From assembly GCA_047946875.1 (NCBI GenBank), contig CP181398.1, positions 1,169,329 to 1,233,328 of the forward strand: a DNA stretch of 64,000 nucleotides, in the 5' to 3' direction. The notes under the pieces are model-generated. The model was given only the letters and a program-made list of their open reading frames with translations, was not told where the DNA came from and did not search any database. This DNA is from Candidatus Kerfeldbacteria bacterium. Its GTDB lineage: Bacteria; Patescibacteriota; Patescibacteriia; UBA10025; JAHIVO01. The first letter of the stretch is position 1. Each line of letters starts with the position of its first letter. Both the position numbers and the translations under genes were made by a program. Shown here in pieces: positions 1,380-50,699 of the stretch.

Positions 1380-1600
1380 GCCCCATACAACGCCTGAGTG
1401 TTGGTGTGCTCAGGTGAGTAAATTTTATGTTTTGAGTATGACCACCTGGGTGGTCACCATAAAATCTTTAGCTTAATCTACTAGATTGGCTTACTTTGAG
1501 GGGTAAATACACCCAGATCAGAGATACCACCTCTGCTCAAAGCTGTTTCAATCAAGTGACTAAACCTTACGAGGGACTCATCAGCACCCCGGTTTATCTT
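1380..1600. ncRNA. candidate structured small RNA; strand and identity unresolved, possibly SRP-RNA-like
   Basis: Intergenic. Nested perfect hairpins (gaccacc-tgg-ggtggtc; cctgag..ctcagg). A long helix closes with GGGGUGCUGAU...UACCCC on the minus strand. Confidence 0.3.
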
Positions 1601-1605
1601 ATGTA

Positions 1606-1842
1606 TTACAAGTTAGAGTAAAAATGGTAGCGGTCACCAAATATATCAGTTAAACCTTGGTGATGTATTATCTTGAATAGACATATCAAGACCGCTTTAT
1701 CTGTCTTGTTAGTAGGGTTATCGCCTGGGATGTTTATCGGTTTGCCTTTTATCACTGTGGCATACGAATAACATCCATAACGGAAATTAACCTCTACCAA
1801 GCGACCACGAAAACGTACCGTTTCTTTATCATACCAAGCCAT
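1606..1842 (-). CDS. hypothetical small protein (78 aa); its C-terminal part overlaps a structured GC-containing region
   Basis: ORF MAWYDKETVRFRGRLVEVNFRYG... with a weak AGAGGG SD 8 nt upstream. No recognisable family. Confidence 0.25.
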   Translation of the reverse strand: MAWYDKETVRFRGRLVEVNFRYGCYSYATVIKGKPINIPGDNPTNKTDKAVLICLFKIIHHQGLTDIFGDRYHFYSNL

Positions 1843-2056
1843 ATTAGACCCTCTTGTAATGCGTTAAATTAAAAATGAGCGATTGATCAACTTACATCAA
1901 AACAAAAATATTGTCAAGGGGGGGCTAAAGAAATATCTAAAGTTTCTGCAAGAAACTCCATGTCATAGGCACTATCTAATTTGTGGTAAGTCATTTTTTT
2001 GACAAAAAATATATACCTGATATATTATATAATTAGAATAAGTAAATAAATATCAT

Positions 2057-3847
2057 ATGAGATTAAGAATAATTTTATCAACATTAGTCATTATCTTATT
2101 TATAGGTTGGCCGTTGACCGCTTTTTTGCGTTCAGCGCCTAATCAACCAATAAAACAAAACCTTTTGGACTCAGAGGTTAGTATTGAAAAATATATACAG
2201 ACGATGTTATATCCAAACACGCCATTCAAGGATTTTAATTCTGATGCTCCTTGGGTACATAGAGGAGGTTTGGATGAACAAATACCAATAATTTCATTTA
2301 TCAAGGATGCACATCTTGATAGTATAGGTTTGGATTATGTGGCTTTTTATAGATTGAATCCAGAGCAATTAGTAGCTGTTTATAATCCATCTGGTCTGGT
2401 AACTATAGATTCCCCTTTTTGGTATATAAGTCTCAATAACTTGACTCCGAATGATTTGGGATTAAATTACGGAGATGATCTGCAAATACGAATTAATATT
2501 AGGTTTAGGGATCAACTAATTTATCATACTTATAAATATTATCTTTCAATAGCTATACGTGGATCATTACCACAGCAGGATGGATGGTATCGTGGAGATA
2601 TCCATCATCATACTTTTTTTACTTCCGATATTTTTGAATACGGAGGATTTCCGGAATTTGACGTGAAAGCTGCAAAAGACATCGGTATGGATTGGATTGC
2701 TTTCACTGATCACTCTTATGATGTATCGGCTTCGGAGTGGGAAAATTTGAAAACTACTGCTCAAGAAAATTCAACCGACGATTTTATTGTACTTCCGGGT
2801 ATGGAATTTTCAGTTGATAATAACAATTCAAATGATTTGGTGGATGATAGAGTTCATTTGTTAGGATTGGGATTTGACAGTTGGATATCAGGACCTGATA
2901 TTGTTCCGGGATTTGATGTTTTTGGTTCACAACCAAGGGTTATGACAGATATTTTGGATGATATAGAAACACAAGGAGGAGTTTCATATGCAGCTCATCC
3001 ATTATCAGAAATTACAGCATTGTCAAACTGGGGATTTATTAAGCCTTGGTCATCTACTAATTATACCGAAGCATTCGATTATGAATCTTTTGTAGGAATG
3101 GAAATTTTTAACAGACGTCAGACGTCATTTAATAACACGGGAATTACAACTGACAATGTAAATCCATTCCCATGGAGTTTGAATTCCAATTGGGATACGG
3201 AATGGCAGGATGGAATTACTAAGTTCAATCAATTAGTAGGAGATAATTTGGACAGGAAAATATTTTTTTCCGGTGGTGCTGATGCACATGGAGATGCGAA
3301 TTTTGAAACAAGTAATAATTATGGATTGGTGGATGTTGCTGCAAATAACAATGCATTAGGTAAGGTTCATACAGTAGCTTATTTACCGAACGGTTTGAGC
3401 CAAGAAAACTTGTTATATGCATTAAAAAACGGCCATTCTATAGTAAGTGACGGGCCGTTAGTAAATATGAGTGTCAGAAGATCAGGGGGGTGTAGTAGCT
3501 GGACAGTAGGAAATATTGGAGATCGTATTAATTATAGTGGTAGTGACAAGTTATTAATTAGTGGGAAATCATCAGATGAATTCGGAGGATTGGAAACTGC
3601 TACAGTGCATATAATCAATTCGCTCGGACATAGTACGGAAAATTTTTCTTTCTCTGGAAATTATGATTTCCAAACATTATTATTATTTTCATTAAACCAA
3701 ACTGACACTTTCGCAGTTTGGACAGAAGTGGAAACCTCTTTAGGTTATAGGAGTTTTTCAAATCCTATTTGGTTTAATTTACCGGATTCCGCATTTAATT
3801 ATGATATTGTGGATCCATATCCGGTTGTTAATCAAAATTGTTATTAA
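2057..3847 (+). CDS. secreted or membrane-anchored PHP-domain metal-dependent phosphoesterase
   Basis: N-terminal hydrophobic segment. PHP motifs GDIHHHT..SD, FTDHS and LPGMEF..HLLGLG. 596 aa. Confidence 0.65.
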   Translation: MRLRIILSTLVIILFIGWPLTAFLRSAPNQPIKQNLLDSEVSIEKYIQTMLYPNTPFKDFNSDAPWVHRGGLDEQIPIISFIKDAHLDSIGLDYVAFYRLNPEQLVAVYNPSGLVTIDSPFWYISLNNLTPNDLGLNYGDDLQIRINIRFRDQLIYHTYKYYLSIAIRGSLPQQDGWYRGDIHHHTFFTSDIFEYGGFPEFDVKAAKDIGMDWIAFTDHSYDVSASEWENLKTTAQENSTDDFIVLPGMEFSVDNNNSNDLVDDRVHLLGLGFDSWISGPDIVPGFDVFGSQPRVMTDILDDIETQGGVSYAAHPLSEITALSNWGFIKPWSSTNYTEAFDYESFVGMEIFNRRQTSFNNTGITTDNVNPFPWSLNSNWDTEWQDGITKFNQLVGDNLDRKIFFSGGADAHGDANFETSNNYGLVDVAANNNALGKVHTVAYLPNGLSQENLLYALKNGHSIVSDGPLVNMSVRRSGGCSSWTVGNIGDRINYSGSDKLLISGKSSDEFGGLETATVHIINSLGHSTENFSFSGNYDFQTLLLFSLNQTDTFAVWTEVETSLGYRSFSNPIWFNLPDSAFNYDIVDPYPVVNQNCY

Positions 3848-3922
3848 AAATAGTAACTTTACGATATAAATTAAATATGATAAACTATTTTAAAACCAAA
3901 GAGTTTTTATAACGGAGGTATT

Positions 3923-4098
3923 ATGAAGTGTGGCAATTGTAGTGGGACGGGTAGAACATATTGGGGTACATGCAATAAGTGCCATGGAAAAGGAAGATGC
4001 GGAGGGAAAAGAAAAAGTAAATCCCGACGTGTTTTACGGGGAAAGGCCCGTAGACATCCGCTTTCAGTAGCTAAGAGGAAACGCCGTTGGGCGTTATA
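3923..4098 (+). CDS. small Cys-rich zinc-ribbon protein with a highly basic tail (58 aa)
   Basis: Translation MKCGNCSGTGRTYWGTCNKCHGKGRCGG... has two CxxCxGxG motifs. GGAGG SD 6 nt upstream and a terminator hairpin immediately downstream. Not in the ORF track because it is under 60 aa. Confidence 0.5.
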
Positions 4099-4104
4099 AA
4101 TTAT

Positions 4105-4138
4105 CAAGCCCTGTCTATTGATAGGGCTTTTATTTATT
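4105..4138 (+). terminator. rho-independent terminator
   Basis: Stem aagccct / agggctt followed by a T-run. Confidence 0.6.
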
Positions 4139-4328
4139 TATATTTGTTTTTTAAATTTTACGCTTCTGGAGCAATAAAATTACGAGCAATCCATTTGCAT
4201 GCTAGTCAGGTATATACTAGAGCACGAGTTGGTGAACATGGAGAAAAAGCATCCAGGCAATTTTTTACACAGGAGACTTTTACTCAGATATATCCTAAAA
4301 TAAATAAAATGATTAATTTGTAATAATT

Positions 4329-4454
4329 TTAGATTTTACCTTTTCTCTTTTTTGCCTTCTCTTCAAGCATAATCCTCTTTGCTTCGAGTCTTTTTGCTGT
4401 TTTGTGAGACTTAGTCTTTTTTTTCTTACCTACTCCCGTAGCTCTTTTTGCCAT
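4329..4454 (-). CDS. small lysine-rich basic protein (41 aa), possibly ribosomal-protein-like
   Basis: Minus-strand ORF MAKRATGVGKKKKTKSHKTAKRLEAKRIMLEEKAKKRKGKI, convergent with the Cys-rich gene. Confidence 0.35.
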   Translation of the reverse strand: MAKRATGVGKKKKTKSHKTAKRLEAKRIMLEEKAKKRKGKI

Positions 4455-4581
4455 ATATATTTTATTTAATAATATTACTTATCGTATATCATTGGGTGAA
4501 ATAATGCAATAAAAAAGTTTTATTAGATTATAGGTATATGATAAACTTAATGTAGGAGGTTAAGTTATTAATAGTATAAAT

Positions 4582-4902
4582 ATGGAAGAACAAAACCAAA
4601 AACAACCAACTCAGCAGCAATCAGTACTGCAGTCCGAGGAACACAGAAAAGGAAAAATTAATTTTTCACAAGCATTCTCCAAGTTAAGTAAATATTCTAA
4701 AAGATTTTTTATTGTTTGTGAATTATTACTTGCTATAGTTGTAATATTATACTTAATGTATGAATATACCCCCTCCTGGTCTGGTTGGGTTGAATTTGTT
4801 CTGCTGTCGTATTTTTTATTTATTGTAAATATTATATATTTAATAGCAATTATTATTTTTCTCTTAACACATAAAAATTATAATGGATTGTGTGTGTGGT
4901 AG
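4582..4902 (+). CDS. small membrane protein; paralog of the 5520 gene (shared MEEQNQK N-terminus)
   Basis: Two predicted TM segments. Shares an upstream sequence motif with the 5207 gene. Confidence 0.5.
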   Translation: MEEQNQKQPTQQQSVLQSEEHRKGKINFSQAFSKLSKYSKRFFIVCELLLAIVVILYLMYEYTPSWSGWVEFVLLSYFLFIVNIIYLIAIIIFLLTHKNYNGLCVW

Positions 4903-5070
4903 GTTTTATATACTATTTGTTAATACCTATTATTCTAATTACATCAGTGGTATTTTTTAACTGGTACTGGAACTATTTTTAAAGAATTATTTTTTTATAA
5001 AAAAATAAAAACACCTCACGAGAGAATAAGATGTTTTTTCTTGGAGAGACATCTAAATACTCAGTTATTT

Positions 5071-5110
5071 TCCCAGGTGGCTATCGTAAGATTATTCGAA
5101 CCCCACATTC
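5071..5110 (-). pseudogene. tRNA-His-like 3' fragment (degenerate)
   Basis: ggtggcta...gattattcgaacccc parallels the tRNA-His 3' half ggtggctagagggaatcgaaccc. Confidence 0.35.
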
Positions 5111-5206
5111 TGCGGGACAAGCCAATCTCAAAATCATTGAGGTTTTATTGGATTTTGGGTATATGGTAGACTTAATATAGGAATTTAAGTTATTAATAGT
5201 ATAAAT

Positions 5207-5509
5207 ATGAATTTAGGTACAACAAACATAATTTTTATAATTATATTATCATTACTTTCGATAGTTTTGGTTATATATATAGCATATTTATTTTTTAGAG
5301 TTAAAAAAGATGATAATAATAATCAAAAGACACTATATAGGTTTTTGAATTATAAACAAGTTATTACAATTGTTGTAATAGTATTGTTGGCCTTCACAAT
5401 AACAAAGGTGTCTAAAAGTTGGGAAAATTTTATATTACCATTTTATCTTCTTATTATTTTAATAATATTAGGAGTAATAGTAATTCCAAAATTATCAAAT
5501 AAAAAATAA
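5207..5509 (+). CDS. small membrane protein (100 aa)
   Basis: Two hydrophobic helices. Conserved upstream motif gattttgggtatatggtagactta. Confidence 0.5.
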   Translation: MNLGTTNIIFIIILSLLSIVLVIYIAYLFFRVKKDDNNNQKTLYRFLNYKQVITIVVIVLLAFTITKVSKSWENFILPFYLLIILIILGVIVIPKLSNKK

Positions 5510-5519
5510 AGGTGTAAAT

Positions 5520-5951
5520 ATGGAAGAACAAAATCAAAAACATACAACATTTCAGCCAGAAGAACCTAAGAATAAAACTTTTAAAAAAATAAAAATCTTT
5601 AGTAGATGTGTATGGGGATTATTTTCAGTTCTAATTGTTTTAAGGAATCTATTTGGCATCGAAATTCCTTTTATAATATTTCAATTTATTGCTTCTATTT
5701 TTTTTATAAGCGGGGTTTTTTCTTTTTGGGTGTTTGCTAACCGTGGAATTAAAGATGTTCGTTTACTTGTTAAATTTCAACTTTGGCAATATTTTTATAT
5801 TGCCTCTGTAGTATTACTAGGTATTTTTACTGCAAATCCTGATGTTAATCAGATGGATGTATTAATATTTTCTATGATTTTTGTTACGTATCTATTGGGA
5901 GAAGCGGCTAATTATTACGAAAAAAAGACTGAGGCTTCAGAAAAAAAATAA
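5520..5951 (+). CDS. membrane protein (143 aa); MEEQNQK paralog
   Basis: N-terminus MEEQNQKHTTFQ is similar to the 4582 ORF. 3-4 TM helices. Confidence 0.5.
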   Translation: MEEQNQKHTTFQPEEPKNKTFKKIKIFSRCVWGLFSVLIVLRNLFGIEIPFIIFQFIASIFFISGVFSFWVFANRGIKDVRLLVKFQLWQYFYIASVVLLGIFTANPDVNQMDVLIFSMIFVTYLLGEAANYYEKKTEASEKK

Positions 5952-6128
5952 AACAAAACTTTTTAAAGATTGGAAATTTTGGGTGTGGGTAATAATTGTC
6001 CTATTGGTTGCTGCTTTTATTATATATAGTAGTTGATAATTATAATGCCACAAAAGGATTTAATTAAAGTATATTAAAAAATTCTGCTTATCGGCAGGCA
6101 GGCACCTTAAGAGGCGGGATTTTTTGAT

Positions 6129-6236
6129 TGGGGTCGGATAGCCCGTCCGCCACAGCTTCGCCGTAGGCGTGCCGGGCGGGCTGTTTACCCCGTCCTTCAT
6201 GGAAGGCGGGGTAAATTTTAGAACTTATTTATTAAG
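6129..6236 (-). pseudogene. tRNA-His-derived repeat copy carrying two GC-rich hairpin insertions
   Basis: tggggtcggatagc..ctgtttacc..ttagaacttattta matches the uninterrupted copy at 11281-11322. This copy has extra 38-nt (6143-6180) and 22-nt (6190-6211) GC hairpins. Confidence 0.6.
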
Positions 6237-6250
6237 AGGTGTTTTATTAT

Positions 6251-7048
6251 TTATTTTTTCAATTCAACTACATCAAGTGTGCGATTATAAATCGATGCTG
6301 TCTGGCCGGCATCAACATTCCAGCCAACCTGAAAAGTATGTGATCCAGCAGTAACATCTACCAAGGCATTGAAGGCCATGTTAAATGGACCGCCGGAAGA
6401 AGCGGCAGTTCCTCTTCTAATGGTGTGATCAACTATTGTCCCATCAACAATTAAAAAAGTCCTGGCTGAAACAAAGTCATTATTAATACTAAATACCCCA
6501 CTGAAATTAATTAATACGGTGCTGGCGCCAGTTGTAACAACAATAGTTTCATCTAAAATATCATAATTTGGGGAATTTTGTGTTGTTGTATCCGTAGTTG
6601 TTCCATAAGCTTCACTCGTTTGAGTTATGGCGCCGGCTGCAATATTGGTAGATGTTACTATCCCTGTCCCCATCAAACTTCCCACCGTCAATGATCCGAT
6701 TACTTCCATATTATCATTTACGATAAATGGCATGGTATCACTTGTCCCAGCTGTAGCACCACGCCAAACACGACCGTCTATTCTTACATTATCTCCAAAG
6801 GTCACAGGGTTATCAACACTATTGGTTGTTGTATCGTTTACAATAGAGCCGTTAAAGTAAGTTACTCCTCCAATATCCTGTTCCCCGATCATAATTGAAC
6901 GCATTTTCATAGTTCCATCAACTTGATAAATATCTCCTTCCGGTCCAAATTGGGAGGTGACATTGTGTGTGGCCGCAGCATTTACAATCCCCACCGTTAA
7001 TGCGATGGAAATGATCACTACCAACGATGTTATTAGTTTTTTGTTCAT
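6251..7048 (-). CDS. secreted surface protein, family member A (shares its N-terminal module with the 15173 and 16160 genes)
   Basis: Signal peptide MNKKLITSLVVIISIALTVGIVNA. About 130 aa are near-identical to paralogs B and C (HNVTSQFGPEGDI.QVDGTMKMRS...). The C-terminus is unique. Confidence 0.7.
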   Translation of the reverse strand: MNKKLITSLVVIISIALTVGIVNAAATHNVTSQFGPEGDIYQVDGTMKMRSIMIGEQDIGGVTYFNGSIVNDTTTNSVDNPVTFGDNVRIDGRVWRGATAGTSDTMPFIVNDNMEVIGSLTVGSLMGTGIVTSTNIAAGAITQTSEAYGTTTDTTTQNSPNYDILDETIVVTTGASTVLINFSGVFSINNDFVSARTFLIVDGTIVDHTIRRGTAASSGGPFNMAFNALVDVTAGSHTFQVGWNVDAGQTASIYNRTLDVVELKK

Positions 7049-40277: not shown

Positions 40278-41062
40278 AAAAATTTAAAAAAGTAGCCATT
40301 CAGGCAGCCAAAGAAGCTGGAAAAATTATAACAAAGCATTATAGTAATCTTAAACCGAGTGATATCAAGAAAAAATCAGCTCATGACATAGTCACCAAGG
40401 TAGACATGCAAGCGAATAAGGTTATTAAATCACTTATACATAAAAACTTTCCTACTCATGATATTTTGAGTGAAGAAACTGGTTTGGAGGATAATGATTC
40501 TAGAGATTATTTTTGGACTATAGATCCGCTAGATGGGACTACTAATTTTTCAATTAATAATCCCCTTCATTGTACAGCAATTTCTCTATCAAAAGGAAAG
40601 AAAATATTATTAAGTATAATTTATTCACCCATATTAAGAGAAATGTATTATGCAGAAAGTGGTAAAGGGGCATATCTTAATGGAAAGAAAATTAGTGTTA
40701 ATAAAATTAATAAATTATCGGATGCAATAGTATTATTAGGAAGAACACATAATATTAAATCAAGACAAATATTTTTTTCAATGCAGAGTAAATTACAAAA
40801 GGAAGTTATGAATATGCGCTGGATAGGAAGTGGTTCTCTTGATCTAGCATATGTAGCTGCTGGTCGAGTAAGTGGATGTATTTTTATGCCACCAGAGTTG
40901 TCGAAGTGGGATTTATTGCCTGGAATATTATTAGTAAGAGAAGCTGGTGGTAAAGTATTGAATTTTAAAGGTGAAGAAGATAATTATTTTAATGGTGGTT
41001 TGATTGCAGGCAACACGGTTATTACAAAGAAACTTCAGAATAAAATAAAAAAATGGAAATAA
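40274..41062 (+). CDS. inositol monophosphatase family protein
   Basis: WTIDPLDGTTNF and WDLLPG..REAGG. Confidence 0.85.
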   Translation: MKKFKKVAIQAAKEAGKIITKHYSNLKPSDIKKKSAHDIVTKVDMQANKVIKSLIHKNFPTHDILSEETGLEDNDSRDYFWTIDPLDGTTNFSINNPLHCTAISLSKGKKILLSIIYSPILREMYYAESGKGAYLNGKKISVNKINKLSDAIVLLGRTHNIKSRQIFFSMQSKLQKEVMNMRWIGSGSLDLAYVAAGRVSGCIFMPPELSKWDLLPGILLVREAGGKVLNFKGEEDNYFNGGLIAGNTVITKKLQNKIKKWK

Positions 41063-41430
41063 TAAAAGGTAAAGTTATTCATGGAGAGCATCTAGGTAGG
41101 AAGCAGGGTTACCCAACTGCAAATTTATCAGACAGCGTCCTGGAAGGTACTAATATAGCTAAAGGTGTTTATGTAGCAGAGGTTTTATTGAAAGGTAAAA
41201 AATACCAGTCCGTTTTGATTATTGGTGTACCTGGAGTTAATATACAGAAAGAAGGAAAGGTAGAAGTATATTTATTATATTATCGAGGAAATATATATGG
41301 TAAAGAAATATCTATTACACCAATAAAAAAAATAAGACCTTTAATTATTATTAAGGACAATAAGGAGCTTATTAGTAGAATTAAGCAAGATTTAGAGGTA
41401 GTAAAAAATTATTTTGTTTCAGCTAAATAA
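41053..41430 (+). CDS. riboflavin kinase domain protein
   Basis: GKVIHGEHLGRKQGYPTANL. Confidence 0.65.
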   Translation: MEIIKGKVIHGEHLGRKQGYPTANLSDSVLEGTNIAKGVYVAEVLLKGKKYQSVLIIGVPGVNIQKEGKVEVYLLYYRGNIYGKEISITPIKKIRPLIIIKDNKELISRIKQDLEVVKNYFVSAK

Positions 41431-43754
41431 GGAGGAAGGAATTTAATGGGCCATTGTTTTTCGTTACCGAGGTATTTTAGATCCATTATACCTATCTTAC
41501 CAACGTATAGCTTTTTTATTTCATTTTCGCCCTTGTCTTTAATAAGCTGAAGGATCATTCGTTGACCGTTGAAATATGCTAGGTCTTTTGTTAGTGCTCC
41601 GTGTTGGTTAGTATTTTGTAATCCCCTTTTTACTCGTAAACATACCCACCAAGCCTTTTCTTCTGGTATGTTCATATTCTTGATTAGGTAATGAAATAAT
41701 TCAACAAATGACATGCTGTTGGCGTGATGAATGGCAATAACATTTAGAGCTGGTCTAAGATATTTATTGCCAAGTGGAAGGCCAAGTTTGTTTTGATTAT
41801 AGATTGCCAAACCTTCTTCAGTGGTAAGGTAATTAGCAGTTCCTTGTTCAAATAATTTATATTTTTGTAATCTTCCATTCTCTAGACGGTATATATGAGT
41901 TTCAATTTCATGTGCTAATAATGCTTGAAATCTAAAGGCGGTTATTTTAGATTTTTTACTGATGAAAATTGTATTTTTTTTATTTATTTGCATACCAGAT
42001 GTAGAAGTTTCCAGTACTTTTATTTTCCATCTTGAAAGCTTCTTATCTATCAAAAATTTCTCAGTTTTTTTAACAATGTCATCAATTTTTAGTCTTTTGC
42101 TTGTATCTGGTGAGAATTCTGATTCTTTAATAAATTTAATGGCTTGCTCATATTGATGCTCATTAACTTCACCAAAAACTTTATGGCTATATTCTATAAG
42201 TTCAGGTTCGCCAACATGTTTTACAAGTAGTAATTTATTTTTTATTTCTTCAATCTTTTTTAGATAAAGAGGCATTAACGGGTGGTTTATAAGGCGAGGT
42301 ATTTTCTTTAACTCATTTAAATAATAGTTAATATCTAGGTCGTGTTTTTTATAAATAAATTTTGGTGAATGAGCAGGATTTTTTAGAAAGGTTTTTTGTT
42401 CATCTTCAATATTTATGGGTTTAATACGTGATAAAATTCCAATTTGTTCATTGATAGAACATATTTTTTTATCGATATTTAAAATAATTTTCTCTTCTCT
42501 AGTTTCCGAAGATGCAGCCGCTCTGTACTCAGGAACAGTTTTTGAAACATCTACCAAAAAATCAGATAAATATTTTCCTGATATTATAATTTTATAACTA
42601 TGATCACTAAGGTCTTCCCTAATAAAGGGTATTTTAATTTTTTTATTTCTTACAAGCAGAGTTAATAATTTTTTTTCTTCAGGGATAGATATTTTACTAT
42701 TTATGATATTTTTGGAACTATGCGGATCTATTTTTGCTTTAATTGGTCCACTATTAGTAGTAATAATGTTTACATATTCATAAAGGCCAATAACTGGCTT
42801 ACTAGTAGAAACAACTTTGGTATTTTCTTTTTTTATAATTTTTGTAAATAATGTTTTTCCTAATTTTACACCTTCTATAGGAGATAATACTTTTAAGTCA
42901 GAAATTTTATTTAATCTATTTCTTAACATGACATGATTTGAAATTTGAATTGCCAAGCCAGCACGAGCATTAATTTCTAATATTTTGATACCACTTTTTG
43001 CTAAGGCAATATCAACTGCAAGATAGCCTACTTGTGTCATATATTGTGTACGAGAAGCAGCTAGCAGTATTTCGTCCCAATGTGGTATTACTATACTGTT
43101 TACCATTAAGCCATTTGGAAGTTTTTTTATTATTTTATTATATTGAACACCATATGTAGTTTTACCTGTGCCAATATCTATACCTATACCAACAGCTCCT
43201 AGGTGAAGATTTGCTTTACCATGTGATTCCATTGTTGGTAATCGAAGCATAGCAATAACAGGTACGTATTTAAAAACGATAATTCTTATGTCAGGCAAAC
43301 CAGCTTCAATGTATTTATTAAAATATTCATTTGATATTAGTAGTTCTTCAAATAATACTTTGTCACGTAATCCTGATATAGCAAATTTACCATCTAAGAT
43401 GGAGATACAGTGTTGTACTAAATCATCCCATTTATATTTTTTGTCATTAACATCAGTATATGTACTACCTTGTGTTTTTTGGATGGCAATAATTCCCTCT
43501 CCACCATAACCACGATTTGGTTTGATAACAAAACTTTTTGGTAATGCTTTAGGATTGAAGTTTCTTAGCTCTGGTAATGATTTTAAACTAGCATAAAGCT
43601 TAGCCACGCCTAAACCACGGGCTTGTAAAAAATGCTTAGTCCCTATTTTATCATCAGCTAATTTCTTTTTTGTTTTAGAATTATATCGAGATAGGTATTG
43701 TAAATTTCTAGAGTTGATCCCGAGTATTCCAGCAGATTTTGCGAAAAATGACAT
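41409..43754 (-). CDS. ATP-grasp (RimK/alpha-L-glutamate-ligase-like) enzyme fused to a C-terminal QEGLA-motif (DUF1704-like) domain
   Basis: N-terminal ATP-grasp-like region (KPNRGYGGEGI, ILEINARAG). The C-terminal region has HEIETH and TEEGLA resembling the QEGLA/DUF1704 family. Confidence 0.65.
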   Translation of the reverse strand: MSFFAKSAGILGINSRNLQYLSRYNSKTKKKLADDKIGTKHFLQARGLGVAKLYASLKSLPELRNFNPKALPKSFVIKPNRGYGGEGIIAIQKTQGSTYTDVNDKKYKWDDLVQHCISILDGKFAISGLRDKVLFEELLISNEYFNKYIEAGLPDIRIIVFKYVPVIAMLRLPTMESHGKANLHLGAVGIGIDIGTGKTTYGVQYNKIIKKLPNGLMVNSIVIPHWDEILLAASRTQYMTQVGYLAVDIALAKSGIKILEINARAGLAIQISNHVMLRNRLNKISDLKVLSPIEGVKLGKTLFTKIIKKENTKVVSTSKPVIGLYEYVNIITTNSGPIKAKIDPHSSKNIINSKISIPEEKKLLTLLVRNKKIKIPFIREDLSDHSYKIIISGKYLSDFLVDVSKTVPEYRAAASSETREEKIILNIDKKICSINEQIGILSRIKPINIEDEQKTFLKNPAHSPKFIYKKHDLDINYYLNELKKIPRLINHPLMPLYLKKIEEIKNKLLLVKHVGEPELIEYSHKVFGEVNEHQYEQAIKFIKESEFSPDTSKRLKIDDIVKKTEKFLIDKKLSRWKIKVLETSTSGMQINKKNTIFISKKSKITAFRFQALLAHEIETHIYRLENGRLQKYKLFEQGTANYLTTEEGLAIYNQNKLGLPLGNKYLRPALNVIAIHHANSMSFVELFHYLIKNMNIPEEKAWWVCLRVKRGLQNTNQHGALTKDLAYFNGQRMILQLIKDKGENEIKKLYVGKIGIMDLKYLGNEKQWPIKFLPPYLAETK

Positions 43755-43760
43755 ATTAAA

Positions 43761-45287
43761 TTATTCTTCAATATTTTTATCTTGAAAAAGACTGCGGAAT
43801 CTAAAAAATTCTGTTAATCGTAGTCCAGTGAATTTACCTAAAATAACTAGTCCAATAATTGGTAGAATAATCAACTCAGGCCATGACATAATAAGACTAT
43901 TGAAGGTATTCCATACAATTAGGTAATAAGCTACTATAGAGACAATAACGGTGGATAGTGCGCTCCAGAGAGCTTCTTTTAGCCCTGCTTCGCTTTGTGC
44001 TGATAGAAACTTCTCAGATAGTGTAGACATAACCAGCATGGGGAAAATCGCAATAGATATTGCAAGAGAAATTTGGTAATAAGATAAAAACCAGACAAAC
44101 CCTAAAAATGATAGTCCAATCAGCGATAAGACGATGCCGGTTTTTGGGATATATAATAATTTGAATTTGTTTAATAATTTACGTAATAAATAACTAACAA
44201 CTACAATGATTAATAGTATACCAATCCCAAATACAATTCCTAATATATAAAGTGAAAGTGAGATTACGAGTGGAGTAAAAATACCAAATGTAGACATGCC
44301 TACGAATTGTCTGGCTAGAGTAATAACAAAGGCAATAAAAGGAAATACTAATAACATATAGATAGTATTGGATGGGATTCCTTTTGTAATAAAATTTGTA
44401 ATTGCGTGTGATAGAAAAAAGATGGGAGATTTCTCACTTCTAGAATCAATAATTCTATATTCTATTGCTCTGTTTGTTAAATTAGTTGATAGAAGGTTAT
44501 AATCTTTTGTTTCAAATATTGGATTTAGTGATTCAGGTCTGGTAAGTAGAATAAAATTAGGTTGTATTACTTGAAATGATTGCTGAGTAAGTTTTGAGGT
44601 TATTCCAATATTTTGATCTGTAATTTTTATAAATAATTTATTGTCTGAGGTAATTTTTTTATCTTCTTCTTGATTTTGCCAATATCGACTAAATGCTTGA
44701 AGCCCAATTGATGCGTTAGTATAAAAAATTAATGAATCAGCATTTTTTATGAATTCACTTTCCTCAGTGATTAGAGGTAATAATTTTTCTTCTGTTAAAA
44801 AGCCCGTATCTTCTTCAACAGCAGATATTACTTTTAATTGAACTCCATTATTAGCAGCTTGATCTTCAATTAGACTAAATTCTTCGAAAATATTTTTATC
44901 TGTAATTAATAATACTTGTTTGTCATAAACAAATATATCTTTTTTTATTAATTCTTTTTGTTCTCGTTGTTGGATAGTAAGAGTAACATTATGTAATCCA
45001 TAACTATCAAATTCGTGAATTACTTCTTGTCCAAACTGAGCTGTGTTGGTATCAGAAAAATCCCAACGGTAGATTGGTGTGCCGGCATCTTTAATAGTTA
45101 TAGAGTCTGATGCATCGAACAATGATTTTTTGCCAAATTCAATATAATCTTCGGAAATAATTATTGGTTGGATTGTATTTATATCAATGTTTTCTTCAAT
45201 CAAAAACTCCTGAGCATTTGATTGTCCAGGTATAAAAATAAATATTATCAGTAGAGGGATTATAGCAAGAATTAACTTTTTCTTCAT
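43761..45287 (-). CDS. signal peptide, ~300-aa extracytoplasmic domain and C-terminal 7-TM domain (7TM-transglutaminase-like partner of the ATP-grasp gene)
   Basis: Signal peptide, large extracellular N-domain, then seven hydrophobic helices. It sits immediately upstream of, and co-oriented with, the ATP-grasp gene. Confidence 0.55.
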   Translation of the reverse strand: MKKKLILAIIPLLIIFIFIPGQSNAQEFLIEENIDINTIQPIIISEDYIEFGKKSLFDASDSITIKDAGTPIYRWDFSDTNTAQFGQEVIHEFDSYGLHNVTLTIQQREQKELIKKDIFVYDKQVLLITDKNIFEEFSLIEDQAANNGVQLKVISAVEEDTGFLTEEKLLPLITEESEFIKNADSLIFYTNASIGLQAFSRYWQNQEEDKKITSDNKLFIKITDQNIGITSKLTQQSFQVIQPNFILLTRPESLNPIFETKDYNLLSTNLTNRAIEYRIIDSRSEKSPIFFLSHAITNFITKGIPSNTIYMLLVFPFIAFVITLARQFVGMSTFGIFTPLVISLSLYILGIVFGIGILLIIVVVSYLLRKLLNKFKLLYIPKTGIVLSLIGLSFLGFVWFLSYYQISLAISIAIFPMLVMSTLSEKFLSAQSEAGLKEALWSALSTVIVSIVAYYLIVWNTFNSLIMSWPELIILPIIGLVILGKFTGLRLTEFFRFRSLFQDKNIEE

Positions 45288-45318
45288 ATGCAGTTACAGT
45301 AATTAATTTTTTTTAAAT

Positions 45319-45362
45319 TGCCGCGAGCGGCCCCGCCTTGGCGGGATTTCGTCACTCCGTGT
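45319..45362 (-). pseudogene. degenerate 3' fragment of tRNA-Leu(UAA) carrying a GC hairpin
   Basis: CCGCTCGCGGCA versus the tRNA 3' end CCCGCGGCA. Adjacent hairpin ccccgccttggcgggg. Confidence 0.45.
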
Positions 45363-45432
45363 CTCAAGACTCTTAATATTTTAATATAATTAATCTTGAG
45401 TATTGTAATAGTTATTGTTTAAAAATATAAGT

Positions 45433-45516
45433 TGCCGCGGGTGGGACTTGAACCCACAAGGTCTTGCAACCACTGGATTTTAAGTCCAGCGCGTATACCA
45501 GTTCCGCCACCGCGGC
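45433..45516 (-). tRNA. tRNA-Leu (UAA), long variable arm, no CCA encoded
   Basis: Anticodon loop CTTAAAA. Confidence 0.85.
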
Positions 45517-45975
45517 CTATTTGTTTATAATGTTAAAGACAGTAATACCTAGAGCGACTGATACATTGAGAGATTCTTTTTTTCCATGCATTGGTATGTC
45601 AATTATAGTATGACAATTTTTTAGTATAGAGCTATCTAATCCCTTTACTTCATTGCCAACTACTAAGGCAATTGGATACTTTGGTTTTAATTTTGTATAA
45701 TCAATACTTTTTTTTGATTGTTCTAAGGCAATTATTTGAAATCCTTGCTTTGCCAGTTTTTTTAATAAATGATTCGTTTGAGTAATTTTTTCAAAAGGAA
45801 TATTTTTTTCTGCTCCTAAAGCTACTTTGTCTATTTTTGGATGTGGAGGAGCAGGAGTTATTCCAGTAAGGAATATTTTATCAATACCAGCAGCGTCAGC
45901 TGTACGAAATATCGATCCAACGTTGAATCGACTCCTGATATTTGGAAGGATTAAATAAAATATTTTATTATTCAT
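45517..45975 (-). CDS. trmL: SpoU/TrmH-family tRNA 2'-O-methyltransferase (TrmL-like)
   Basis: VGSIFRTADAAG, LVVGNEVKGL and IPMHG..ESLNVSVA motifs. 152 aa. Confidence 0.8.
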   Translation of the reverse strand: MNNKIFYLILPNIRSRFNVGSIFRTADAAGIDKIFLTGITPAPPHPKIDKVALGAEKNIPFEKITQTNHLLKKLAKQGFQIIALEQSKKSIDYTKLKPKYPIALVVGNEVKGLDSSILKNCHTIIDIPMHGKKESLNVSVALGITVFNIINK

Positions 45976-45989
45976 CTGTTGAATGTAAA

Positions 45990-46021
45990 TGGAGCGGCAA
46001 ATTCCGCTGAGCGGGATGAGC
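45990..46021 (-). pseudogene. degenerate 3' fragment of tRNA-Gly(GCC) with a GC hairpin
   Basis: tggagcggcaaa is identical to the tRNA 3' end, then attccgctgagcggga hairpin. Confidence 0.5.
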
Positions 46022-46082
46022 TTTTAGTATTAAGTGAGATTAATTAATAATCTTAGAATAAAATTTATAAGTTAATTTGTAA

Positions 46083-46159
46083 TGGAGCGGCAAACCGGAC
46101 TCGAACCGGCGACCTTTTCCTTGGCAAGGAAACGCTCTAGCCAACTGAGCTACTGCCGC
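46083..46159 (-). tRNA. tRNA-Gly (GCC), CCA encoded
   Basis: Anticodon loop TTGCCAA. Confidence 0.85.
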
Positions 46160-46262
46160 GCGTCGAAATAGTTTTTCTGGCTCCGTTTCCAATCAAGATT
46201 GAAAACTGCACCATTTACACTATTTCTCCTTCTCCTCGTCCCGAACTGCGGGACTCGGTAAA
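46160..46262 (-). promoter_or_regulatory. conserved tRNA-upstream element (copy L3)
   Basis: gcgtcgaaatagtttttctggctccgtttccaatcaagattgaaaactgcacc...ctcgtcccgaactgcgggactcgg. About 90 percent identical to 47269-47372. Confidence 0.55.
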
Positions 46263-46272
46263 GATTAATTTA

Positions 46273-46348
<76 letters not shown>

Positions 46349-46474
46349 ACAGCCAGATTAATAATATCTTATGTGCTGCTACGTAAAAATATAATACCAG
46401 AAAAATCATAATTTATCAAGAAGAATAGGTAATAAATATATGATTAAAAGTAAGTATTTAAGTAGTTAATTAAA

Positions 46475-46987
46475 TTATAATATTTCAATAGTGACATGTC
46501 TTATGCCCCATTGCTTTGCCTCTTCACGTGTTTCCATCCAGATGTCGGCTTTGTGCCAATATCTAGCAGCCATACGATCTTCTACAACAAATATTTTATT
46601 GCCAAAGTATTCAGGAAATCTAACACGAGTTCCAATTTTTAGGAAGTTAGCAGCGATAATACCATCTCTTACATGTGCTCCTGAGGCAGTTATAAATGGA
46701 TTACCCGATGTTTGGTCAGGTGTTGAAGAATATGCGGTCACAGGTATCACCATTGTTCTTATTGTTACTGGTTGAGGTCTATCTTCATTAATAGGTAGAC
46801 GGTTTAATGTATCAAATACATTAATTTCCCATTGTTTCGTAAATCTTGATTGGATTTCAGGATATTCAATCTCTATTAGGCTTGTTTGAGCTACTACCTG
46901 TTGAGGGAAGGAATATTGCCAAAATATGATAGTTAATACAGCAAAGATAAGTGCTTTAGTTTTTACTGAATTGAATTTTAATTTCAT
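46475..46987 (-). CDS. secreted 3D-domain protein (MltA/YuiC-like cell-wall-binding domain)
   Basis: TAYSS.PDQTSG...TASG..V..GIIAAN...GT.V.....F.V.DR 3D-domain signature. N-terminal signal/TM segment. Confidence 0.75.
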   Translation of the reverse strand: MKLKFNSVKTKALIFAVLTIIFWQYSFPQQVVAQTSLIEIEYPEIQSRFTKQWEINVFDTLNRLPINEDRPQPVTIRTMVIPVTAYSSTPDQTSGNPFITASGAHVRDGIIAANFLKIGTRVRFPEYFGNKIFVVEDRMAARYWHKADIWMETREEAKQWGIRHVTIEIL

Positions 46988-47077
46988 AGTTAATTTAGTG
47001 GTAATTTAAGCTAATTTTAGCCTAAATGTATATAATTAGACCTATTTAATATTTATTGTTTATTAATAAATAGGTAT

Positions 47078-47101
47078 CAAAAAACACCCTAACATAGGGT
47101 G
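47078..47101 (-). terminator. rho-independent terminator downstream of tRNA-Gly(UCC)
   Basis: caccctatgttagggtg plus T6 on the minus strand. Confidence 0.6.
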
Positions 47102-47193
47102 CGTTTGATGGATCATCTTAGCATATAGGTTTATTGTGTCAAGGGGTATAGAAACATTAATAAAAAAACCTAACATATAGTTAGATTCTTTTG

Positions 47194-47268
47194 TGGAGCG
47201 GGTAAGGGGAATCGAACCCCTGTTTTCAGGTTGGAAACCTGACATAATAGCCATTATACGATACCCGC
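47194..47268 (-). tRNA. tRNA-Gly (UCC), CCA encoded
   Basis: Anticodon loop TTTCCAA. Confidence 0.85.
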
Positions 47269-47372
47269 GCGCGTCGAAATAGTATTTCTGGTTCCGTTTC
47301 CAATTAAGATTGAAAACTGCACCCTATGCACTATTTCTCCTTTTCTCGTCCCGCACTGCGGGACTCGGTTGA
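47269..47372 (-). promoter_or_regulatory. conserved tRNA-upstream element (copy L4)
   Basis: See L3. Confidence 0.55.
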
Positions 47373-47374
47373 GA

Positions 47375-47950
47375 CTAAGTTATTAAAGTTATTCCTTTTG
47401 AAGCAAGAATGGTTACCAATAAAGTGAATGACATATCTCCTAGAGTGATTATGATCAGCATCTTTTTAGGAGGATATTTTATAGCTGCAAGGAATAGTAT
47501 TAGAATGTCATTTGGTAGAGGTGTAAATCCAATATAAATATATGATATTAAAGGAATTGCTTTTTCTAACCATTTTCTTTTTTTAAAGAAGTGCGCAACT
47601 TTATCAATTCTTTCTGTCCACTTTTCATTTATTAGTTCTCGTCCTTTAGAACCTGCATAAAACATTATCATATCGCCAATTGCAAGTCCAATGCCAGATA
47701 CTAATCCCAAGTAAATTGGATCCATGCCTCCGACTACAAGTGTAATAATAAGACTAATGAAGGAGATTGATCCACCAGCAGAAAAACCACCAAACAATGA
47801 AACAAAGAATGCAAGGATGTATCCATTTTGTACACCTATTTTATCTACTATCTCTTCTGGACTGATAAAATATAAAAGGGCGGTCAGTAATATCAAAAAT
47901 ATGACTAGGATTGAAAAAATTATTATTTTTTTTCTATAATTTTCTATCAT
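47375..47950 (-). CDS. DedA/VTT-domain (YqaA-like) membrane protein
   Basis: Multi-TM sequence that is YqaA/DedA-like. Confidence 0.65.
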   Translation of the reverse strand: MIENYRKKIIIFSILVIFLILLTALLYFISPEEIVDKIGVQNGYILAFFVSLFGGFSAGGSISFISLIITLVVGGMDPIYLGLVSGIGLAIGDMIMFYAGSKGRELINEKWTERIDKVAHFFKKRKWLEKAIPLISYIYIGFTPLPNDILILFLAAIKYPPKKMLIIITLGDMSFTLLVTILASKGITLIT

Positions 47951-47966
47951 ATTTTAATTAACATTG

Positions 47967-48293
47967 CTATGGTTGCCAGAGATACTTATTAAGATCTATA
48001 AAATAACTCTCCTCTTTCTTAATAACTTTTACATTTTCTTTTCTTAGAAGTGTTGCTTGTACATTAGCTGAATGTTCTCTACAAGTTGTACTGATTCTTC
48101 CTTCACGATTAATAATTCTTTGCCAAGGTGTTTCTTTTAGTAAATTGTCCGGTAATATATGTAGGGCCCAGCCAACTTGCCTGGCAGCGCGTGGAGAACC
48201 AATCAACGCAGCAATTTGTCCATAAGTAGCAACTTTGCCTCGTGGTACTTTTTTGGTTAGTCTGTAAACTTTTTGAAAGAAATTTAAGGACAT
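47967..48293 (-). CDS. alkyltransferase-like (ATL) protein: MGMT DNA-binding domain with the active-site Cys replaced by Trp
   Basis: VATYGQIAALIG...PWQRIIN (PWxR instead of PCHR). ATG MSLNFF at 48293. The ORF-track N-terminal extension across the tRNA-Pro fragment is rejected. Confidence 0.65.
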   Translation of the reverse strand: MSLNFFQKVYRLTKKVPRGKVATYGQIAALIGSPRAARQVGWALHILPDNLLKETPWQRIINREGRISTTCREHSANVQATLLRKENVKVIKKEESYFIDLNKYLWQP

Positions 48294-48321
48294 AGATATT
48301 GTTTCTAAACAGTGTTGGGAT

Positions 48322-48363
48322 GGCGAGACTCGAACTCGCGACCCCTCGCTCCCAAAGCGAGTG
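48322..48363 (-). pseudogene. partial duplicate of the tRNA-Pro 3' half
   Basis: 42 nt identical to 48397-48438 of tRNA-Pro. Confidence 0.7.
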
Positions 48364-48387
48364 ATAGTTAGTATTAATACATCTAAG

Positions 48388-48461
48388 TCGGGGTGGCGAG
48401 ACTCGAACTCGCGACCCCTCGCTCCCAAAGCGAGTGCGCTAGCCAACTGCGCTACACCCCG
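48388..48461 (-). tRNA. tRNA-Pro (UGG), no CCA encoded
   Basis: Anticodon loop TTTGGGA. Confidence 0.85.
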
Positions 48462-48519
48462 ACACAGATGTATTACTAACTATTTTATTTTCAAGGTAAT
48501 GATTTTATTGGAAACTGCG

Positions 48520-48549
48520 CCTGCCTGCCGGTAGGCAGGCTACACCCCG
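48520..48549. repeat. GC-rich palindrome (cctgcctgccggtaggcagg) followed by a 10-nt duplicate of the tRNA-Pro 5' end
   Basis: Same palindrome family as 11171-11190 and 6087-6103. Confidence 0.55.
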
Positions 48550-48574
48550 TAACTATATAGAAAGTTTGGTAAAA

Positions 48575-48646
48575 TGCCGCGGGGCGGAATCGAACCACCG
48601 ACGCAAGGATTTTCAGTCCTTCGCTCTACCCCTGAGCTACCGCGGC
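48575..48646 (-). tRNA. tRNA-Phe (GAA), no CCA encoded
   Basis: Anticodon loop CTGAAAA. Confidence 0.85.
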
Positions 48647-48745
48647 GCGTCGAAATGATACTTCAGGTTCCGTTTCCAACTGAAGTTGAAAACTGCACTC
48701 TTTATATCATTTCTCCTCTCCTCAATGAAGCTACGCTTCCTTTCG
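48647..48745 (-). promoter_or_regulatory. conserved tRNA-upstream element (copy L5)
   Basis: gcgtcgaaatgatacttcaggttccgtttccaactgaagttgaaaactgcac...atttctcct. Confidence 0.5.
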
Positions 48746-48758
48746 GTATAATTCTTAA

Positions 48759-48835
48759 TGGTGGGCGATCCAGGAGTTGAACCTGGGACCTCGTCATTAT
48801 CAGTGACGCGCTCTAACCAACTGAGCTAATCGCCC
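48759..48835 (-). tRNA. tRNA-Ile (GAU), CCA encoded
   Basis: Anticodon loop CTGATAA. Lies downstream of the 16S gene. Confidence 0.85.

Positions 48836-49203: not shown

Positions 49204-50699
<1,496 letters not shown>

Follow-up and report, generated by a model that had tools for sequence, protein, structure and literature searches.

Which molecule is modified by the ligase encoded in one of the widely conserved, unexplained gene pairs of the Patescibacteria? The pair considered here lies in a stretch of 64,000 nucleotides (nt) from a Candidatus Kerfeldbacteria bacterium (contig CP181398.1 of assembly GCA_047946875.1, positions 1,169,329 to 1,233,328), the whole of which is referred to as the window. 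One gene encodes a membrane protein of 508 amino acids (aa) with seven transmembrane helices (7TM), and the other a cytoplasmic enzyme of 781 aa, in which an ATP-grasp ligase domain, a small middle domain and a domain of the MATCAP family (formerly DUF1704, and also known as QEGLA) follow one another. A preliminary description made from the sequence alone had proposed two open reading frames (ORFs) in one operon. The limits that it gave for both were exact (Table 1), 6 nt separate the 7TM gene from the enzyme gene (...AAT ATT GAA GAA TAA tttaat ATG), and the two genes form a predicted single transcription unit. It had also stated that the system has no defined substrate, which agrees with the literature on the related Rlo proteins (PMC12239564). 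The identification of the domains is in itself ordinary; the interest of this variant from the candidate phyla radiation (CPR) is a specific substrate hypothesis, as a candidate acceptor with a tell-tale -EE end is encoded beside the enzyme. We infer, with a probability of roughly 0.45, that the ligase would extend the -EE tail of its operon partner, probably with glutamate, and that the MATCAP domain would trim it.

The acidic tail and the fused MATCAP domain

The most informative feature of the pair, overlooked in the preliminary description, is the invariant glutamate at the C-terminus of the 7TM protein. The tail that follows the membrane domain consists of a conserved amphipathic helix (GLRxxEYxRFR), a variable linker and the C-terminal Glu, and its last ~10 residues have a predicted local distance difference test score (pLDDT) of ~57, as expected for a flexible tail. 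Given the signal peptide, the ectodomain and the seven helices that precede it, the tail lies in the cytoplasm. This side is independently confirmed by an unannotated ORF of 584 aa on a plasmid of Halobacterium sp. DL1 (CP007061.1, L003:5164-6918), in which a 7TM_transglut domain without ectodomain carries an ATPgrasp_ST domain at its C-terminus. The same fusion indicates that the system is also present in Archaea, with both parts physically coupled.

One genome per species was scanned, 264 genomes had a relative, and the best 80 of these 264 were analysed as species loci. A terminal Glu was found in all 120 cluster representatives of the 7TM protein and in 75 of 75 species loci. The tail ends in EE in 62 of 74 species-locus tails, and the run of Glu varies from one to five residues, the linker that precedes it not being conserved. 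Of the other ORFs of the same loci (n = 483), 4.3% have a terminal E and 0.2% a terminal EE, and the 508-aa protein is the only one of the 60 ORFs of the window that ends in EE. As a control, we considered RloB, the 7TM protein of the proteobacterial RloABC system: only 1 of 120 homologues of Aeromonas RloB ends in E, and their tails are variable and often basic.

A phmmer search with the transmembrane (TM) domain against 1.84 billion representatives gave 1550 matches. Past the ~23 closest ones, E-tails and Lys-rich tails are mixed, and members without a terminal E proved to have, in their genomic context, ligases of 450-500 aa with a RimB-like domain at the end and no MATCAP domain. For the distant E-tail proteins P0409, P0457 and P0479 the contigs end at the gene, and the neighbours are uninformative. 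A metagenome scan with the RimB-type ligases retrieved 80 loci, all with the RimB-like domain. Among the 72 RimB-type CPR loci with a 7TM gene, four tails end in E (L127, L162, L152 and L151) and none in EE. The ligases of L127 and L162 (931 and 965 aa) combine the ATP-grasp domain and an intact RimB-like domain (DTGA) with a divergent MATCAP domain, which matches PF08014 above threshold and has the motifs HEIVH and QEGVA, and they are best read as intermediate architectures. Their 7TM partners are ectodomain-less proteins of ~220 aa ending in ...AKNE or ...SNDE, and the 7TM protein and tail of L152, where the ligase runs off the contig, are near-identical to those of L127. Judging from these sequences, the MATCAP fusions include a second lineage of different construction in which the terminal Glu is found again. 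In the overall count, where the partner enzyme has a fused MATCAP domain 78 tails are E-terminal and 1 is not, as opposed to 2 and 70 where there is none (Fisher p = 1e-39 without correction for phylogeny, a value that overstates the evidence, the sequences being related).

MATCAP-family genes also occur on their own, just 3' of a RimB-type ligase gene, in three loci (L110:6099-7073, L123:4965-6281 and L156:6537-7887). In the tail of L123 (...QKKKEEGR) an EE lies two residues from the end.

Architecture of the two proteins

The fusion of an ATP-grasp to a QEGLA/DUF1704 domain, as first described, was recovered by hidden Markov model (HMM) searches, in which the Pfam scan placed PF14397 (ATPgrasp_ST) at residues 16-285 of the enzyme (E = 1.7e-57, 195 bits against a cut-off of 31) and PF08014 (MATCAP) at residues 456-767 (E = 1.8e-39, 136 bits against a cut-off of 27). 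The description missed a third domain between the two, which is treated below as a degenerate retropepsin remnant. The ligase domain shares 39% identity with Legionella and Aeromonas RloC (tblastn); since its score with TIGR02291, 251 bits, is under the equivalog cut-off of 314, it is a homologue of RloC and not an equivalog. With the AlphaFold model of the enzyme (pLDDT 86.6, built on 58 homologues), Foldseek retrieved RimK (5zct, 7qys), the RimK-RpsF complex (5zk6) and LysX/ArgX at E values of ~4e-8 to 1e-6, those for 5zct, 7qys and 5zk6 being 4e-8 to 1e-7. These closest solved relatives (RimK, RimK-RpsF and LysX/ArgX-LysW) act on the C-terminal Glu of a protein or peptide. The RimK model PF08443 had no match to the 781-aa protein in the Pfam scan, nor was there a TTL-family match (PF03133) at E <= 0.01, Pfam returning PF14397, PF02655, PF14398 and PF02955. 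The ATP-grasp residues K78, D248, E260, N262 and R264 are unvarying in the alignment of the 58 homologues, and the determinants of amino acid specificity are not readable from the ligase sequence.

The C-terminal domain resembles human MATCAP (7z5g) both in sequence (phmmer E = 4.9e-08, with an identity of only ~20%) and in structure (Foldseek E = 1.2e-11, template modelling score 0.66 normalised on the target). Its HEIETH motif aligns with HEIGTH of the human enzyme and its TEEGLA with the human TEEGLA, and H615, E616, H620, E646, E647 and G648 are unvarying in the 58 homologues. From their residues, both active sites, ATP-grasp and MATCAP, look functional. The HExxxH form is known from TMCP1/2, and MATCAP and TMCP1/2 are carboxypeptidases that detyrosinate, shorten and deglutamylate acidic tubulin tails (PMC10499314). 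The co-occurrence of the fused MATCAP domain with the E-tail suggests that the domain may act as a carboxypeptidase on an acidic C-terminal tail. Its score with TIGR02421 (QEGLA), 148 bits, is under the equivalog cut-off of 338.65, which sets the enzyme apart from the proteobacterial QEGLA proteins as a non-equivalog.

The middle domain, a small all-beta domain between the ligase and MATCAP domains, is related to the RimB-like domain (PF05618) that stands at the C-terminus of the MATCAP-less CPR ligases. The two were aligned by hhalign with a probability of 97% (E = 1.2e-10, 96 columns), and HMM matches of 41 and 36 bits also link them. The active-site DTGA is changed to DPHS and ~58 central residues are deleted, and we read the domain as a retropepsin remnant that is probably catalytically dead. 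The homology is clear only by way of the CPR RimB-type ligases: against two proteobacterial RloA the hhalign probability was only 31%, and a Pfam scan of ten representatives at E <= 1 gave nothing relevant for this domain. No retropepsin was among the matches listed by Foldseek for the whole 781-aa model, which were filled by ATP-grasp and MATCAP structures. A ubiquitin-like protein, the sole match of the profile to PDB sequences (E = 1), was dropped, as the model of the middle domain has no helix.

With respect to the membrane protein, a 7TM protein with a large extracytoplasmic domain had been described, and this was substantiated by the match of residues 307-500 to PF14402 (E = 7e-29, 101.5 bits against a cut-off of 25) and by the ~280 aa that lie behind the signal peptide. 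The RloB model NF052267 matches in its TM part only (model positions 312-508, 78 bits against a cut-off of 900). In the AlphaFold model (pLDDT 87.3) the signal region forms a helix at residues 2-17, followed by a low-confidence linker. A PKD domain (PF18911, E = 2.9e-08) comes next, and the ~180 residues between it and the 7TM domain, which have no Pfam match, fold in the model into an alpha/beta domain that resembles the N-domain of LD-carboxypeptidase and occupies the place of the transglutaminase-like domain of RloB. A transglutaminase-like fold in this gene had been named beforehand as a test of the preliminary description, and it was not found: PF14400 (Transglut_i_TM) gave no match to the 508-aa protein and a strong match to Legionella and Aeromonas RloB, and the PKD and alpha/beta folds of the model rule out a transglutaminase-like ectodomain. 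For the membrane domain, no significant structural relative was retrieved from the PDB. As a whole, the protein is receptor-like.

Table 1. Positions of the gene pair and its domains in the window, and of two related pairs in their own loci
Feature	Position	Strand	Basis
Gene of the 508-aa 7TM protein	43761..45287	-	ORF, Pfam and homologues
Signal peptide, residues 1-25, MKKKLILAIIPLLIIFIFIPGQSNA, followed by QE	45213..45287	-	sequence; model
Extracytoplasmic PKD domain, residues ~47-120	44928..45149	-	PF18911, model
Extracytoplasmic Rossmann/flavodoxin-like alpha/beta domain, residues ~122-300	44388..44924	-	AlphaFold model
Seven-helix membrane domain (7TM_transglut), residues ~305-487	43827..44375	-	PF14402, model helices
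Cytoplasmic tail, residues 488-508, LRLTEFFRFRSLFQDKNIEE (terminal Glu-Glu codons 43764-43769)	43764..43826	-	sequence, homologues
Gene of the 781-aa cytoplasmic three-domain enzyme	41409..43754	-	ORF, Pfam and homologues
RloC/RimK-like ATP-grasp ligase domain, residues ~16-304	42843..43709	-	PF14397, TIGR02291 and Foldseek
Degenerate RimB/RloA-type retropepsin remnant, residues ~319-410	42525..42800	-	hhalign, HMM matches
MATCAP/TMCP-type (DUF1704/QEGLA) gluzincin metallocarboxypeptidase domain, residues ~428-778	41421..42473	-	PF08014, phmmer, Foldseek
HExxxH zinc-binding/catalytic motif, H615-E616-I-E-T-H620	41895..41912	-	alignment
TEEGLA ('QEGLA' signature, third metal ligand of gluzincins), residues 645-650	41805..41822	-	alignment
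L127 ligase	3486-6281
L127 7TM partner	2849-3508
L162 ligase	1398-4295
L162 7TM partner	527-1192

Conservation, genomic setting and related systems

Records of a metagenome-assembled genome (MAG) of Candidatus Kerfeldbacteria (Patescibacteria/CPR) contain identical copies of both proteins. More than 500 homologues of the 781-aa protein were found, the best 120 of which all have 761-801 aa and both the ATP-grasp and the MATCAP domains, and the hosts of the fusion are Kerfeld-, Magasanik-, Buchanan-, Uhr-, Gracili- and Peregrinibacteria and their relatives. For the 508-aa protein there are 120 full-length homologues, with 40-100% identity. Given the identical proteins on record and the hundreds of full-length homologues, these are real genes and not chance ORFs. 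Names in the databases ('7TM domain-containing protein' and 'tyrosine/phenylalanine carboxypeptidase domain-containing protein') already reflect their domains. The 7TM gene is directly upstream of the enzyme gene, on the same strand, in 75 of the 80 species loci, mostly at a distance of less than 30 nt or overlapping it, and no further gene is conserved around the pair in these loci.

In 17 of the 80 species loci, an extra stand-alone RimK-like ATP-grasp gene (~320 aa; PF08443, 2.9e-11) adjoins the pair and could encode a second writer of other specificity. It is located directly upstream of the 7TM gene and on the same strand in L006 (2377-3339), L007-L016 and L024, in divergent orientation and sometimes in two copies in L027, L029, L032, L035, L036, L040 and L064, and downstream of the pair in L068. 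The closest relatives of the window have this gene; tblastn did not find it in the 64 kb of the window itself. In several relatives (L086-L089, L092 and L094) the pair comes right after genes of the yebC/TACO1 family and ruvC, and in L088 it is located between ruvC and ruvA; the yebC/ruvC synteny is not seen in the window. At the locus of P0380, a 7TM protein that is taken up again below, the pair is followed by three further ATP-grasp genes, one RimK-like and two D-Ala-D-Ala-ligase-like, which suggests a larger peptide-building cluster. Fourteen of the 80 species records, third-party-assembled MAGs, are titled 'uncultured Gammaproteobacteria bacterium' (L008, L009, L019, L021, L027-L029, L034-L036, L038, L040, L067 and L071). 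Their proteins are 41-60% identical to those of the window (best tblastn segment), the 7TM proteins encoded upstream match the full-length CPR-family profile, and the titles look like mislabels.

Upstream of the pair the window contains a SpoU-type methyltransferase gene and, on the minus strand at 45433-45516, a tRNA gene. At the other end a convergent riboflavin-kinase gene (41053-41430, plus strand) overlaps the 3' end of the enzyme gene by 22 nt (41409-41430). In a scan of 41000-46100 the number of promoters was not above that of shuffled sequence, and no terminator or terminator-like hairpin was found. The G+C content of the window is ~33%. A complete 16S rRNA gene is present at 49208-50698 (minus strand), and no 23S rRNA match was obtained across the 64-kb window. 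The segment 3' of the 16S gene (45433-48835, minus strand) has seven tRNA genes among small protein genes, namely ogt-like, VTT/DedA-like and SpoU methylase genes and a 170-aa ORF without Pfam match. The O6-methylguanine-DNA methyltransferase-like ORF (47967-48446, minus strand), which has a TTL start, overlaps a tRNA gene (48388-48461, minus strand) by ~60 nt; as its Pfam match starts only at residue 55, the real start is probably further downstream.

It had been suggested that the pair resembles a predicted system in which a RimK-like ATP-grasp, a QEGLA-motif domain and a 7TM protein occur together. The relation to the '7TM + ATP-grasp' system of comparative genomics stands, but this system, now called RloABC in Pseudomonas aeruginosa, is made up of a retropepsin that is secreted, a 7TM protein with a transglutaminase domain and an ATP-grasp ligase, with no QEGLA protein (Lormand et al. 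2025, PMC12239564). In Pseudomonas, polyglutamate is cleaved by RloA, the effect of losing the RloA proteases is suppressed when RloB or RloC is lost as well, and a search of the authors for a polyglutamate target encoded in the genome was negative (PMC12239564). With RloABC the CPR pair shares a homologous ligase (PF14397/TIGR02291 type), the seven-helix domain (PF14402), the order of 7TM gene and ligase gene, and a peptidase associated with the ligase. In contrast to RloABC, it has no secreted RloA (no RloA-type ORF, defined as PF05618 with a signal peptide, was found in the operon or elsewhere in the 64-kb window), and the retropepsin persists only as a seemingly dead intracellular remnant fused to the ligase. 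Moreover, the pair adds the MATCAP metallocarboxypeptidase, its ectodomain is of PKD and alpha/beta type, its 7TM tail ends in -EE whereas a terminal E is seen in 1 of 120 RloB, and it comes from a member of the CPR, a group whose cells are generally regarded as having no outer membrane.

RimK lengthens ribosomal protein S6 at its terminal -EE by glutamates, which RimB takes away again. The CPR ligase is structurally nearest to RimK and likewise has a peptidase at its side, its candidate acceptor has the same -EE terminus as S6, and the middle domain is of RimB-type retropepsin descent. However, the candidate acceptor is a membrane protein of the same operon and not a ribosomal protein, the putative eraser is a metallo-exopeptidase, and the ligase belongs to the RloC branch and not to RimK proper. 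LysX/ArgX, which have a similar ATP-grasp structure, likewise have a partner of their own encoded nearby, LysW, to whose C-terminal Glu they ligate; with LysX, however, ligation is to the gamma-carboxyl of a carrier that is small and soluble, and it serves biosynthesis, whereas no biosynthetic genes accompany the CPR pair.

The tubulin cycle (TTL/TTLL with MATCAP/TMCP1/2; 7z5g; PMC10499314) likewise has a PF08014 carboxypeptidase with HExxxH and EEGLA motifs, and the logic would be shared: a writer of the ATP-grasp type, predicted here, and a MATCAP eraser work on a disordered acidic tail that has -EE at its C-terminus. The CPR writer is, however, RimK/RloC-like and not of the TTL family, writer and eraser are one polypeptide, and the target is not tubulin. 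As no TTL-family domain is present, the likeness is one of analogy on the writer side, and on the eraser side it is one of homology. That QEGLA proteins co-occur with a 7TM protein, as was also supposed, is true of the CPR pair and not of the proteobacterial QEGLA loci examined. The proteobacterial proteins (TIGR02421; 'flavohemoglobin expression-modulating') have the same MATCAP/DUF1704 domain and motifs, but they either carry a fused N-formylglutamate-amidohydrolase-like domain or occur by themselves, without a 7TM gene in these loci. In Vibrio sp. HDW18 (L004:5122-7113) the amidohydrolase-like domain precedes MATCAP, and in Sinorhizobium medicae pMl3 (L005:5263-8204) the MATCAP protein is followed by a glutathione-synthetase-like ATP-grasp gene; neither has a 7TM gene nearby, and the 'QEGLA motif' proteins of Vibrio and Sinorhizobium have 627-663 aa. 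No paper was found on the CPR variant or on its acidic tail, in a literature search that did not cover the 2009 family-defining survey, which possibly names the ATP-grasp-DUF1704 fusion. These Pfam families were reportedly defined in that survey, by Iyer et al.

Proposed function and its competitors

According to the mechanism that we favour, the enzyme would dock on the cytoplasmic face of the 7TM protein, and the ligase would spend ATP to lengthen the terminal -EE by amino acids, which would most probably be alpha-linked glutamates, while the carboxypeptidase domain would take the added residues off singly. The length of the acidic tail would thus be a reversible mark on the membrane protein, set by the balance between writer and eraser and presumably controlled by the ectodomain or by the supply of ATP or glutamate. 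In the course of evolution, the metallocarboxypeptidase would have taken over from the retropepsin that is the eraser in the related Rlo/Rim systems, given that the middle domain is a decayed RimB-like domain. The 7TM protein, operon-encoded and with an invariant terminal Glu, is inferred to be the candidate acceptor. Glu as the added residue is only suggested, by the encoded runs of one to five Glu and by the polyglutamate specificity of RloA and RimB (PMC12239564).

Several observations weigh against this mechanism. The evolutionary events behind the association of the tail with MATCAP are few, with at least two that are independent. In P0380 the partner is MATCAP-fused and yet the tail ends in ...RFRIARKSH (L086/L087:6539-11521), behind which no hidden frameshift was found, and, conversely, P0432 and the 7TM protein of L151 end in E with MATCAP-less partners. 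Where the MATCAP gene is separate, in three loci, the tails do not end in E, which refutes a strict one-to-one link of any MATCAP gene with an E-tail; in the sequences at hand, the link holds for fused MATCAP. In proteobacteria, as in the CPR clade of RimB type, the core of ligase and 7TM protein works with non-Glu, often Lys-rich tails, and therefore the core function needs no acidic 7TM acceptor. Furthermore, a writer and an eraser in one polypeptide would lead to a futile cycle unless regulated, and the tail is short, reaching ~6-8 residues past the last helix, so that its access to two active sites would need a close complex.

The main rival, which we consider rather unlikely, is that the ligase, as RimK is capable of doing in vitro, makes a free poly-alpha-glutamate or short peptide at the membrane, which the MATCAP domain degrades, the 7TM protein serving only to anchor, sense or export; the -EE end would then be a product-like tether or pseudosubstrate, docking or auto-inhibiting the enzyme and not itself extended. 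This would account for the non-acidic tails that accompany the same core in proteobacteria and RimB-type CPR systems and for the direct fusion in Halobacterium, which leaves no free tail. It is also in line with the genetics of Pseudomonas, which fit a toxic polyglutamate product that needs cleavage outside the cytoplasm (PMC12239564), and with the title of PDB entry 5zct, where RimK is called a poly-alpha-glutamate synthetase. Decay of the RimB-like domain could moreover have removed an older docking module, for which the EE tail and MATCAP then substituted. However, a docking motif needs neither a variable run of one to five Glu nor a C-terminal position, which is kept in 78 of 79 cases, and the catalytic residues of MATCAP are invariant, so that a bound product-like tail would be a substrate. 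A search of the PDB gave no structural relative for the 7TM domain, and we know of no export function for it.

The remaining two explanations are less likely. It is improbable that the ATP-grasp amidates or aminoacylates a precursor of the cell wall or of a surface polymer, with the ectodomain acting on the same polymer outside, MATCAP trimming peptide stems and the acidic tail being unrelated. The name and description of PF14397 in Pfam ('sugar-transfer associated'), the similarity of the alpha/beta ectodomain to the N-domain of LD-carboxypeptidase, the cell-shape and beta-lactam phenotypes of Pseudomonas Rlo mutants (PMC12239564), and FemAB, LysM-M23 or penicillin-binding protein genes near some relatives all point to the envelope, but no envelope gene is conserved beside the pair in the 80 species loci, the enzymes nearest in structure to the ligase have protein C-termini and not sugar-linked peptides as their targets, and the association of the tail with MATCAP would be left unexplained. 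Still less probable is that the pair is an ordinary CPR RloBC with the same role in osmotic or envelope stress, the Glu being a lineage-specific trait such as an insertion or stability signal. The homology of TM domain and ligase to RloB and RloC would favour it, as would P0380, MATCAP-fused and yet without E-tail. However, the secreted retropepsin and the transglutaminase-like domain, which define Rlo, are absent, and the terminal Glu, which is kept while the linker diverges, reappears in the differently built MATCAP fusions of L127 and L162.

Should the extension and trimming of the tail not hold, the exchange of a retropepsin for a metallocarboxypeptidase, with the fossil domain kept, would still be a clear case of non-orthologous displacement inside one polypeptide. 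If the proposal is true, polyglutamylation of a bacterial protein would be known in a third case, and for the first time in a membrane protein; bacterial MATCAP/DUF1704 domains would have a first function, and the combination of a MATCAP eraser and an ATP-grasp writer for acidic tails would be older than tubulin. We tentatively go further and put forward a tail code, the first for a bacterial membrane protein, in which a single writer-eraser enzyme would reversibly extend and trim the C-terminal tail of the 7TM protein. The logic of the tubulin cycle (-EE tail, ATP-grasp and MATCAP) would in that case already be at work in Patescibacteria on a receptor-like 7TM protein, and the length of the tail would couple an extracellular signal, or the ATP and glutamate state of the cell, to its activity.

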